Below, in pieces: positions 1-3,000 of a DNA stretch of 21,791 nt. A program made the position numbers. The first letter of the stretch is position 1, and each line of letters starts with the position of its first letter. This DNA is from a candidate division WOR-3 bacterium (GTDB taxonomy: Bacteria; Hydrothermota; Hydrothermia; LBFQ01; DSFT01), in assembly GCA_965649115.1 (NCBI GenBank), contig CBFGJN010000031.1:1-21791 (forward strand), read 5' to 3'.

Positions 1-3000
1 CCCCCTAATAATCCCCCCAATAAATCAACAATTTCCTTAAAAATTTTATAAATTATTGATTATCAATCGCTTAACAATAATTATTGGACAAAGCACTTCA
101 GTTTTATCTTTAAATAAGGGGGGGAGAAGTTTAAGCCATAAGCTATTCACTAAAACCATTGATTTTATGGGGGGAATTATTGGGGGGCGAAGCCCCCCAT
201 AGCCTAAATATGGGAATTTGTAAGCCGAAGGCTTAATTACAGGGTGGGCGGGCAAAATAAGAAATAATCTATATTTCAGAATTACTAGACACAGCACATA
301 AAATAAATCTATGAACTTTATAATTTTCAAACTAACAATGAGAATAAATTATAAATTTCTTGAAGGGGTATTTTCAAAGTGGGATTATATTAGAGAACAA
401 TTTGAATTTTCAGATGAACTTATAAATATAGATGAAAAAATTGTTAAGGAAGAGTGGAGGACATTTGAATATAAAGGAAATAATGATTATAGAATTGTTT
501 GTGGTGATGGTTCTTACAATACAATTGAATATATTGATAAATATATTATTCTTTCATCAGGTGTTGGATTGTTTTTTGATAGTAAAAGTAGTAGTCAAGA
601 CTCTACCTATCTTTCATTTGTTATAGTTATTCCTTTTGATGTTATAGTTAGAAAGTTTCTTGATGATTTAGCTTCTTTAATGATGAGCACACTGGAGCTT
701 AAATCAATATATTTAATGGCAAGTAAAGTTAAACATGATATTATTTTAATTGATGGAAGTATAAGAAGTTTAATAATTAGATTTGGTCCAAGTTATAGTA
801 GTCAAATAGGGCAGAGGTGGTTTTACAAGGGAGAAGTTGATGAAAAGGAAATTGAAAAAATTTATTATGAAAATAAAGATGAAATCTATAATTATGACTT
901 ATGGTCATATCAATTAGTTAAAAATTTTAGTAAGGAAAATAAATTCATTTATTTTGCACATCTTCTATATTATGAGTATTTGAAGGTTCTAAATGATTTA
1001 TTAATGAATTTTGAAGTTATAAGCATTTCAAAATCTTTCTCTCCCACAACAGGCGAAAAAATTTTCAATCTAATAGAAAGACCAGATATTATCATTTTTG
1101 AGGAATTTACAAAGGAAGTAGGTTATAGTAGAAAAGTTAAGTATCTCCAAGAAGATGAATTTTATAAATGGAAATTACCTTCACCTTTTGAACATTTAAA
1201 AAGAAAACAAATTTTCTTCTTTTATACAAGATTTGAGGAAAATCACAGAGTTTATAAAGTTGAGTTTATAAGAGATAGAGAACAAGAAGAAATTTTAAAA
1301 ATCATTCATCCTACTATTGTAAGAGGTTATCCTGTTGTTTTGAAAATTGCTCATAATGATGCCTTAATAACTGATAGTGATGCTCAAATTTTTGAACAAC
1401 ATATAAGAAACGAATTGAAAGTTCAAATAGGAATAAAATTAAGAGAAGAACTTTTATAGTGTTTAGATCCCTTTAATTAAAACTTTTGAATTTTTGGAGT
1501 GAATTATTGGGGGCATCAGCGTTAATAGTTATTTCATTCTAAAATTTTCAAAGATTTATAATTATCATAAATTCCAAATATCAATAAAATTATTGAAATT
1601 AAATAATTCCCTCCAAGCAAAACGAACAAAACACTTCCAGCAGTATATAATAAACTTAAATTTGAAACACTCCAAAGTGCAAGTGAAAATTTCTCAAACT
1701 TGAACTTAACTTTATTTAAAATAAATTCATTAAGATATGAAAAAATAAAAACAATTAAAATAGGGAAAGTTAAATAAAACGAACAAACTTCGTGTTTTTC
1801 AATAGAAATTATTACCCACACTGCTAATAAGTAAGAAAAGATAGGAATTATTAAAAATTTTTTCATTTTTTAAGTGTTTCTTTATATTTATTTATAATAT
1901 CTCTAGCATAAGCACTTACAATTTTAGACCATTCTTCTTCCTTATCTGAACTTTGAGAACTCCTTGAATAAATCTCTTTACCATCTTTATCATATATTGA
2001 AAATTTAAAATATAAAACATTTTCTTTTATATCCAATTCCCCCCAAATAAAAGCATCAAGTTTTAGGATTTGAACAGCTTTCAATATCCCATCAAGTGTA
2101 GGATTATCTTTATTGTATATATTTGATGTTTGTTCTGTTGAAACAACTGTTATTCCTTGAATTTTACGAATTTCATCTTCCATTATACTTGCCATTTTAT
2201 CAGAAATATCTCTTAATTTTGAAGTTTTTGTATTTAATTTAAATGAAAAAATACCTATGTACTTAATTGAGGGACCAATAATTGAACTATAACCTTTATT
2301 AAGTTCAGTTAAAACCACATCAGTAATATCAACATTAGAACTAAAATACAAAATTAAATCTTTATTTTTATTGAGAACAATATCGTAGTTATTTCTTCTA
2401 GCAATACTATCAATAACTAAATAAATTTTGTTAATATAGGGCTGAACAATTTGCTGATATTTTTGATTAATCTGTTCATATATGTTTTTTGCTAAGTTTT
2501 GATATTCATTTTCTTTTTGTTCAATTTTTTTTTCAAGCTCATATATTGCTTCATCTGTTAAAAAACTTCTTTGTTCTGAAAGAAAGTTTTTTAAACTATC
2601 AATTTGTTTTTTCAAACTATCAAGCGACCTTTCTTTTTCTAACTGAAATTGTCTTAATTGATTCATAGCATCCTTATAATCATAATAATTATTTTTTATT
2701 TTTTCAATATCAACGAAAGCAACATTTAATTTTTGTGAAATTATAATAAACAACATAAATGCGGTGGGGGTGGGATTTGAACCCACGTTCCCCTTTCGGG
2801 GAAAGCTGATTTCGAATCAGCCCCTTTGGACCACTCAGGCACCCCACCTACAATTTTAATTCCCAAAACAAAAACTTATTATTAATAAATAAATTCAATT
2901 CTGAAAGCAAATCTATAACATTATGCCTGATAATAGCTTCCAAAATTGACTCATCCTTACTTAAAATATAATTTTTCCAATAATTTGGAACTTCTTTATT

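Follow-up and report, generated by a model that had tools for sequence, protein, structure and literature searches.

The DNA analysed here, referred to as the window, is a stretch of 21,791 nucleotides from a Hydrothermia (WOR-3) genome of 1.85 Mb that is 94.5% complete and assembled in 99 contigs. A nurA gene lies near its start, and the following features were recorded.

338 to 1459, forward strand: nurA, a stand-alone gene for a protein of 373 residues (PF09376, 89 bits against a cut-off of 21).
146 to 333 (approximate limits), no strand assigned: one copy of an intergenic repeat that is dispersed through the genome; it immediately precedes nurA and does not belong to the repair system.
46 to 330, reverse strand: open reading frame of 94 residues that overlaps the repeat copy, has no Pfam match and is probably spurious.
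2761 to 2848, reverse strand: tRNA-Ser(CGA), between an RNase H-like open reading frame and an OmpH-domain gene.
7893 to 12733, reverse strand: five co-directional CRISPR type III-like genes, with Cas10/Csm1 and RAMP domains in two and the other three assigned from gene order.
12728 to 12869, 13858 to 14042, 17471 to 17582 and 21682 to 21734: other repeat copies (repeat families D1-D4).

The repeat, about 150-200 bases long, gave 407 and 534 blastn matches across the genome with two copies as queries, and no Rfam match. Of the 407 matches, 84 fall no more than 300 bases from a contig end. The repeat may account for the fragmentation of the assembly. No CRISPR array was present among the repeats listed for the window.

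The nurA product was assigned to its family on two grounds: PF09376 scores over its gathering threshold, and the predicted model (pLDDT 87.7) adopts the RNase H-type NurA fold. A Foldseek search with this model returned archaeal NurA structures at all of ranks 1 to 10 (E 5.6e-19 to 8.4e-13), with TM-scores of 0.60-0.68 over the query. The catalytic residues of Sulfolobus solfataricus NurA are given as D58, E116, D133, K202 and Y298 in the available text of PMC3326311. Equivalents of the catalytic D, E and D and of the K and Y, taken from a sequence alignment with archaeal NurA, are all present, together with the motif III histidine, and residues D57, E120, D139, K232, Y331 and H339 are invariant in an alignment of all 22 class homologues. 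The protein is thus predicted to be an RNase H-fold 5'-3' nuclease of archaeal type. At the HerA-binding patch, sites I295 and F300 (archaeal numbering) correspond to V328 and V333; the F300-equivalent is hydrophobic or aromatic in 21 of the 22 class proteins and the I295-equivalent is proline in 11. Position 338 was taken as the start, in place of the in-frame ATG at 311, since four same-genus relatives use the equivalent position. A single-sequence search recovered six close relatives only. One further genome carries a second, weak NurA-like frame (G025:C172, L025; E 1.6e-4) on a 2.1-kb contig, with no NCBIfam match.

An earlier note had reported NurA together with HerA, Mre11 and Rad50 in this genome, and all four genes were recovered where it had placed them. 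The partners lie outside the window, on two other contigs.

C18, 102 to 1589, forward strand: herA (PF09378, PF01935 and PF05872 over cut-off).
C2, 14142 to 15287, reverse strand: mre11.
C2, 11809 to 14145, reverse strand: rad50, paired with mre11 (together 11809 to 15287).

HerA possesses the HAS barrel, the DUF87 core, and Walker A/B and C-terminal motifs that are invariant in 21 aligned sequences; it scores 402 bits on repair-type models against 152 on anti-phage models. Motifs of Mre11 and Rad50 are invariant or nearly so in class alignments, including the ABC motifs and an invariant CPxC zinc hook in Rad50. The NCBIfam E-values reported earlier were reproduced (Rad50_Sulf 6e-66 against SbcC 2e-13; HerA_Thermprot 3e-120; likewise Mre11_Sulfo and NurA_Sulf). 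As that note had conceded, none of the four proteins reaches the curated archaeal cut-off, in models that are lineage-specific by name: in bits over cut-off, NurA_Sulf gave 63/400, HerA_Thermprot 402/800, Mre11_Sulfo 83/500 and Rad50_Sulf 223/1000. The best PDB sequence matches reached 420 bits for HerA and 172 bits for Mre11, against 55-88 bits for SbcD-type entries. The latter are named SbcD or are entries that we take to be from Thermotoga; some organism labels among the PDB matches are likewise our assumption. Profiles (with SbcCD as control), PDB scores, trees and the zinc hook together mark Mre11-Rad50 as predicted members of the archaeal type rather than of SbcCD. Profile, fold and active site therefore bear out the archaeal sequence type claimed for all four.

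Archaeal comparison loci show a herA, mre11, rad50 and nurA cluster, but no such operon is found here, where the genes occupy three contigs. At the class loci examined, the neighbours of nurA are unrelated genes; in family f2 the gene lies within a conserved neighbourhood of what are presumably housekeeping-like genes, their labels being our assumption. In one f8 genome, recJ, mre11-rad50 and nurA all fall within about 17 kb (G024:C6:58046-75218, L098). The two remaining f8 genomes do not show this proximity; their corresponding contigs are short or carry different neighbours. In genus g3, mre11 and rad50 are non-adjacent in all five genomes (L108-L112, L132-L137). A herA-ORF-mre11-rad50 operon of archaeal style on a 4.3-kb contig of one clade genome (G039:C76, L101) was set aside as likely contamination, since its Mre11 nests among archaea and the bin's rpoB is archaeal-like. 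Against one same-genus genome, dN/dS across the four genes is 0.065 (nurA), 0.082, 0.184 and 0.228, and their GC3 is 0.10-0.15 against 0.15 +/- 0.03 for the genome. The four are under purifying selection and look like old, settled chromosomal genes.

We surveyed 64 genomes of the class, whose members are bacteria of hot springs and vents. NurA is present in 22, comprising all members of three families (f1, f2 and f8), and in none of the 42 others, which reproduces the earlier count; the third family, coded f8 here, was f5 in that note, and f5 here is another, AddAB-bearing family. The other three proteins, which had not previously been followed into relatives, were surveyed alongside. HerA of this type occurs in the same 22 genomes, with distant paralogues only in 2 of the 42 others. 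Mre11 gives strong matches in the same 22 and weak ones in 17 of the 42; those in f5 are bacterial SbcD inside an addA-addB-sbcD-sbcC operon. Rad50 is seen in 21 of the 22, one copy being split in two frames; in the remaining genome mre11 stops at a contig edge. Among 242 genomes of the phylum at least 80% complete, NurA matches were found in 22, of which 21 belong to this clade; the one elsewhere, a 241-residue open reading frame, was rejected as it has no match to the NurA profile. A link with hyperthermophily was also discarded: reverse gyrase scores over cut-off in 14 of 22 NurA-positive and 28 of 42 NurA-negative genomes, revealing no association.

The nuclease domain of AddA, PF12705, had been counted in 40 of the 42 NurA-negative and 1 of the 22 NurA-positive genomes. 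At E<=0.001 we instead found it in 41 and 8, respectively, with 5 of the 8 over cut-off. None of the eight is AddAB: six are frames of 105-231 residues, one is a Cas4-Cas1 fusion and one is a 422-residue frame without an NCBIfam match. AddA remnants were rejected as a reading of these weak matches. Using an AddA profile built from the class itself, AddA was detected in 0 of the 22 NurA genomes; 21 gave a best match of 608-719 residues, the size of UvrD/PcrA, and one (57% complete) gave no match. Conversely, 41 of the 42 NurA-negative genomes have AddA, complete or truncated at a contig end, the sole miss being a genome that is 67% complete. The source genome has no PF12705 match, and an unfiltered six-frame search with class AddA and AddB profiles returned only a 674-residue UvrD/PcrA without nuclease domain and no AddB, in agreement with the reported lack of AddAB/RecBCD, a type of enzyme defined by an SF1 helicase joined to a PD-(D/E)XK nuclease, with a second subunit. 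Because recA is missing from this assembly too, the absence of AddAB from it is weak evidence in isolation. As a control for assembly gaps we looked for recA, which escaped detection in only 4 of the 64 class genomes, source genome included, and the absence of AddA in 22 of 22 is therefore not a gap effect. In three same-genus genomes recA precedes the gene starting at C2:147; in the source genome it lies off the start of C2, beyond the contig end. The idea that recA was lost along with AddAB was rejected, since the gene is present in 21 of 21 other clade genomes.

Two further observations were made in AddAB-bearing families. Three of them encode a protein of 871-892 residues in which a Ser/Thr kinase is joined to a UvrD/PcrA helicase (L393:790-3462, L394:1904-4582, L399:1272-3887). 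The helicase is not part of a fusion in the source genome and, among the matches listed, no frame that long occurs in the 22 NurA-positive genomes; possibly the fusion was lost on the same branch as AddAB. In f11 (beside addAB) and in one f10 genome, a phosphoesterase and a coiled-coil ATPase of 768-782 residues score weakly on both SbcCD and Mre11-Rad50 models (L229, L237, L238, L241).

A species tree of seven marker proteins (3424 columns) was built with 36 and then 22 of 57 genomes, plus outgroups. Families f8, f1 and f2 form one clade, with a FastTree support of 1.0 (36 genomes) and an SH-aLRT of 100 in a quick IQ-TREE search under a site-mixture model (22 genomes). The sister family carries addB-addA, as do deeper-branching families. 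Because the NurA clade is nested among AddAB-bearing families, AddAB is ancestral in the class, and the archaeal-type resection set was gained and AddAB lost on a single branch; the order of the two is not readable from the tree. Two separate gains, with the third family in another order, need not be invoked. The earlier caution that kin are not independent, allowing for one or two events, can be narrowed to one: since the three families form a single clade, the mirror-image pattern of NurA and AddA is one event, to which no statistic applies.

Outside the class, among the heat-loving Aquificota, NurA was found in 116 of 139 genomes. Of these 116, 37 have PF12705 frames of at least 770 residues; none of the 23 NurA-negative genomes does, such that 23 of 139 have neither NurA nor long AddAB-type frames by these profiles. 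When three Aquificota with long frames were checked with the AddA profile, AddA-like frames of 930-1008 residues were recovered, with adjacent addA-addB in one. Genome G339 holds AddA, AddB and all four genes of the set together, and G376 holds AddA and all four. In three other NurA-positive Aquificota the AddA profile did not find AddA; these provide a second case of AddAB dispensability. One genome can thus carry both the set and AddAB, and AddAB can be lacking where the set is not present. The mirror-image distribution of NurA and AddA reported earlier holds within the class, but their mutual exclusion is not general. Not all 116 NurA-positive genomes carry the same set, because at least one that lacks AddA has bacterial SbcCD and four have no full-length match to class HerA. 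In two Aquificota (G373:C1:1521105-1523499; G382:C3:64075-66571) a 744-758 residue SF1 helicase is followed by a separate PD-(D/E)XK frame of about 300 residues, possibly a split AddA.

Our preferred reading, which we judge to have an even chance of being correct, is that the ancestor of the three Hydrothermia families would have acquired NurA-HerA-Mre11-Rad50, most likely from Aquificota of the Hydrogenothermaceae line, and lost addAB on the same branch, the new set resecting breaks and rendering AddAB dispensable, not incompatible. By analogy with the archaeal system, in which HerA and NurA form a 6:2 complex that couples 5'-3' resection to ATP, Mre11-Rad50 would bind and trim the broken end, and a HerA hexamer would feed the DNA through a NurA dimer to yield a 3' tail; retained bacterial RecF and RecR (with RecO) would then load bacterial RecA. 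In the source genome RecJ, RecF, RecR, RecN, RuvB and PriA score over cut-off, and UvrD and a contig-cut RecG are present. RecJ is also over cut-off in four of four other clade genomes tested, while RecO gave a weak match in one of five clade genomes and RecQ was not found in any of the five tested. A 516-residue helicase (C16:14970-16520; L385:1471-3021) has weak matches only, to archaeal Hel308-type models. Of the wholesale replacement claimed earlier, the gain and the AddAB loss on the same branch hold; that the set took over the function of AddAB is an evenly balanced proposition, with RecJ, RecF, RecR and UvrD all kept. A broader version appeals to us somewhat less: that recombination here would be a hybrid in which the archaeal-type set carries out the main break resection and hands ends to RecFOR-RecA without a Chi-regulated enzyme, the set having spread between Aquificota and WOR-3 and having allowed the loss of AddAB more than once, which would leave natural pairs of relatives, some with both machines and some with the archaeal-type one alone.

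The strongest competitor, tentative but deserving serious weight, is that these bacteria resemble Deinococcus: RecJ, UvrD and RecFOR would resect breaks and AddAB would have been lost for that reason, the set serving other purposes (foreign DNA, hairpins or blocked ends, fork repair) and the gain and loss sharing a long branch without causal link. The repair proteins retained in the source genome fit such a scheme, and the Aquificota that lack both machines, together with the NurA-positive, AddA-less genome carrying SbcCD, demonstrate that AddAB can go without the set. Resection in Deinococcus is described as mainly RecJ-based, with nurA and herA deletions giving modest or improved resistance, in the accessible part of PMC9960219; phenotypes in Deinococcus and Thermus (same source and PMC11143384, likewise in part) point the same way. 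These published phenotypes, however, concern distant NurA-HerA types that the profiles used here do not match. Moreover, RecQ was not found in the five clade genomes tested, AddA loss is seen in no other of 41 reasonably complete class members, and, in contrast to defence genes with their patchy occurrence, all four genes persist in nearly every one of the 22 genomes, which span two orders.

Returning to acquisition from Aquificota, the origin of the set was examined in gene trees of HerA (51 of about 100 rows, reduced to 36 by removing long and near-duplicate sequences), NurA (45 of 81 rows), Mre11 (41 rows) and Rad50 (31 rows, restricted to the head regions). A single pattern scan supplied the archaea: of its 263 relatives 80 were used, and no named row belongs to Thermococcales, Methanococcales, Sulfolobales or DPANN. 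Most Aquificota sequences were assigned by tree position beside five named ones. The nearest named HerA record, 92% identical, is from a Candidatus Hydrothermia bacterium, and the nearest named relatives outside the class are Aquificota, where HerA is 43-46% identical over near-full length and also stand-alone. In the HerA tree the class sequences are monophyletic (98/96) and have Hydrogenothermaceae as their sister group (100/100); Desulfurobacteriaceae follow, and the 19 archaea all lie on the opposite side (95/99). The topology is unchanged with outgroups, and monophyly of Aquificota HerA is rejected (AU p=0.0013). NurA of the class joins Hydrogenothermaceae-like genomes (97/97), a grouping that holds with 138 representatives added (FastTree 97; 30 rows, 15 without taxon name and no named archaeon), and its separation from archaea is weak (66/42). 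Mre11 gives the same unrooted split, class plus Hydrogenothermaceae (96), with 17 of 18 archaeal rows apart from the class proteins (99/99). Rad50 is apart from SbcC but has no otherwise resolved placement. Mre11 and Rad50 of the class fall apart from SbcD and SbcC, the f5 operon proteins included. Class monophyly is resolved for HerA and merely not rejected for Mre11 (p=0.217) and Rad50 (p=0.223).

With the archaea sampled, these trees speak against a direct archaeal source. Direct transfer of an operon from an archaeon, with two incompatible machines of which one displaces the other, now seems improbable: archaeal proteins give the best matches by NCBIfam model, PDB sequence and fold, and complementarity is perfect in the class, but HerA and Mre11 fall outside the sampled archaea and closer to Aquificota, and G339 and G376 carry both machines. 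Among plasmids, a search for HerA returned 11 records, none of them close (at most 36% identity). The most likely donor, we infer, was a member of the Aquificota from the Hydrogenothermaceae line; five further Mre11 proteins cluster with the clade (SH-aLRT 88), however, so the donor may also be a lineage not sampled here. The reverse direction, from Hydrothermia to Hydrogenothermaceae, would accommodate the longer Hydrothermia branches, and the NurA and Mre11 trees leave the order within the shared group open. It appears a shade less probable still, given that the HerA tree nests both, as sister clades, within a broader Aquificota grouping, Desulfurobacteriaceae lying outside them, and that NurA occurs in 116 of 139 genomes of Aquificota but in 21 of 242 from WOR-3. 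Finally, incomplete or mixed bins could be suspected from the missing recA and from archaeal contigs in one clade genome, but an artefact is scarcely credible when in 22 bins the genes occupy separate contigs with bacterial housekeeping genes around them, their GC3 matches that of the genome, the NurA, Mre11 and HerA trees recover the three families, and recA is missed in 4 of 64 genomes against AddA in 22 of 22.

Bacteria with NurA-HerA but no AddAB are already known. Our literature search, which left most subscription papers outside its reach, found no description of the present set in WOR-3 or Aquificota, nor of an archaeal-type set with AddAB loss in this clade. Neither NurA nor HerA is mentioned in the available portion of a survey of bacterial break-repair systems, and the word 'repair' is absent from the accessible text of a WOR-3 genome paper (PMC12542636). 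Excerpts of the sources consulted (among PMC9960219, PMC13748450, PMC3326311, PMC11143384, PMC6452273, PMC12542636 and PMC12285271) place bacterial NurA outside the archaeal group, and a 2026 review, in the part available, treats it as a separate, motif-degenerate branch acting mainly against foreign DNA (PMC13748450). In contrast, this clade consists of bacteria with intact archaeal-type NurA, HerA, Mre11 and Rad50 and no AddAB. Should the set resect breaks, resection modules would be interchangeable across domains and able to feed RecA. Named Aquificota relatives that have or lack AddAB-type genes allow this to be tested; the case itself is limited to a single event among uncultured bins.

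Compared with archaeal HerA-NurA and Mre11-Rad50 (S. solfataricus NurA 2YGK; Thermococcus kodakarensis complex 9X1L-P; PMC3326311), the clade has the same four families, with the NurA fold, catalytic residues, HAS barrel, Walker motifs and zinc hook. It differs in its scattered genes, of which mre11-rad50 alone are linked (and split in one genus), in the frequent proline at the I295-equivalent interface site and in scores that all fall under the curated cut-offs. Its host is also a bacterium with RecA and RecFOR proteins, whereas the archaeal system has RadA. Deinococcus radiodurans and Thermus thermophilus are, like the clade, bacteria with NurA-HerA, the former without AddAB/RecBCD and the latter retaining AddAB, according to the available sections of PMC9960219 and PMC11143384; their proteins are of a distant type with <20% identity to archaeal ones (PMC9960219, in the same sections). 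No Deinococcus or Thermus entry was recognised among the NurA and HerA PDB and fold matches of the clade proteins. AddAB and SbcCD of the other Hydrothermia families act at the same repair step, SbcCD being the bacterial homologue of Mre11-Rad50, and the f5 addA-addB-sbcD-sbcC operon matches bacterial models best (SbcC 344 bits against Rad50 139; SbcD over cut-off). The closest counterpart in the HerA, NurA and Mre11 trees is the set of Aquificota (Hydrogenothermaceae, Desulfurobacteriaceae), some of which are also without AddA, while many, unlike the Hydrothermia clade, retain AddAB-type genes as well.
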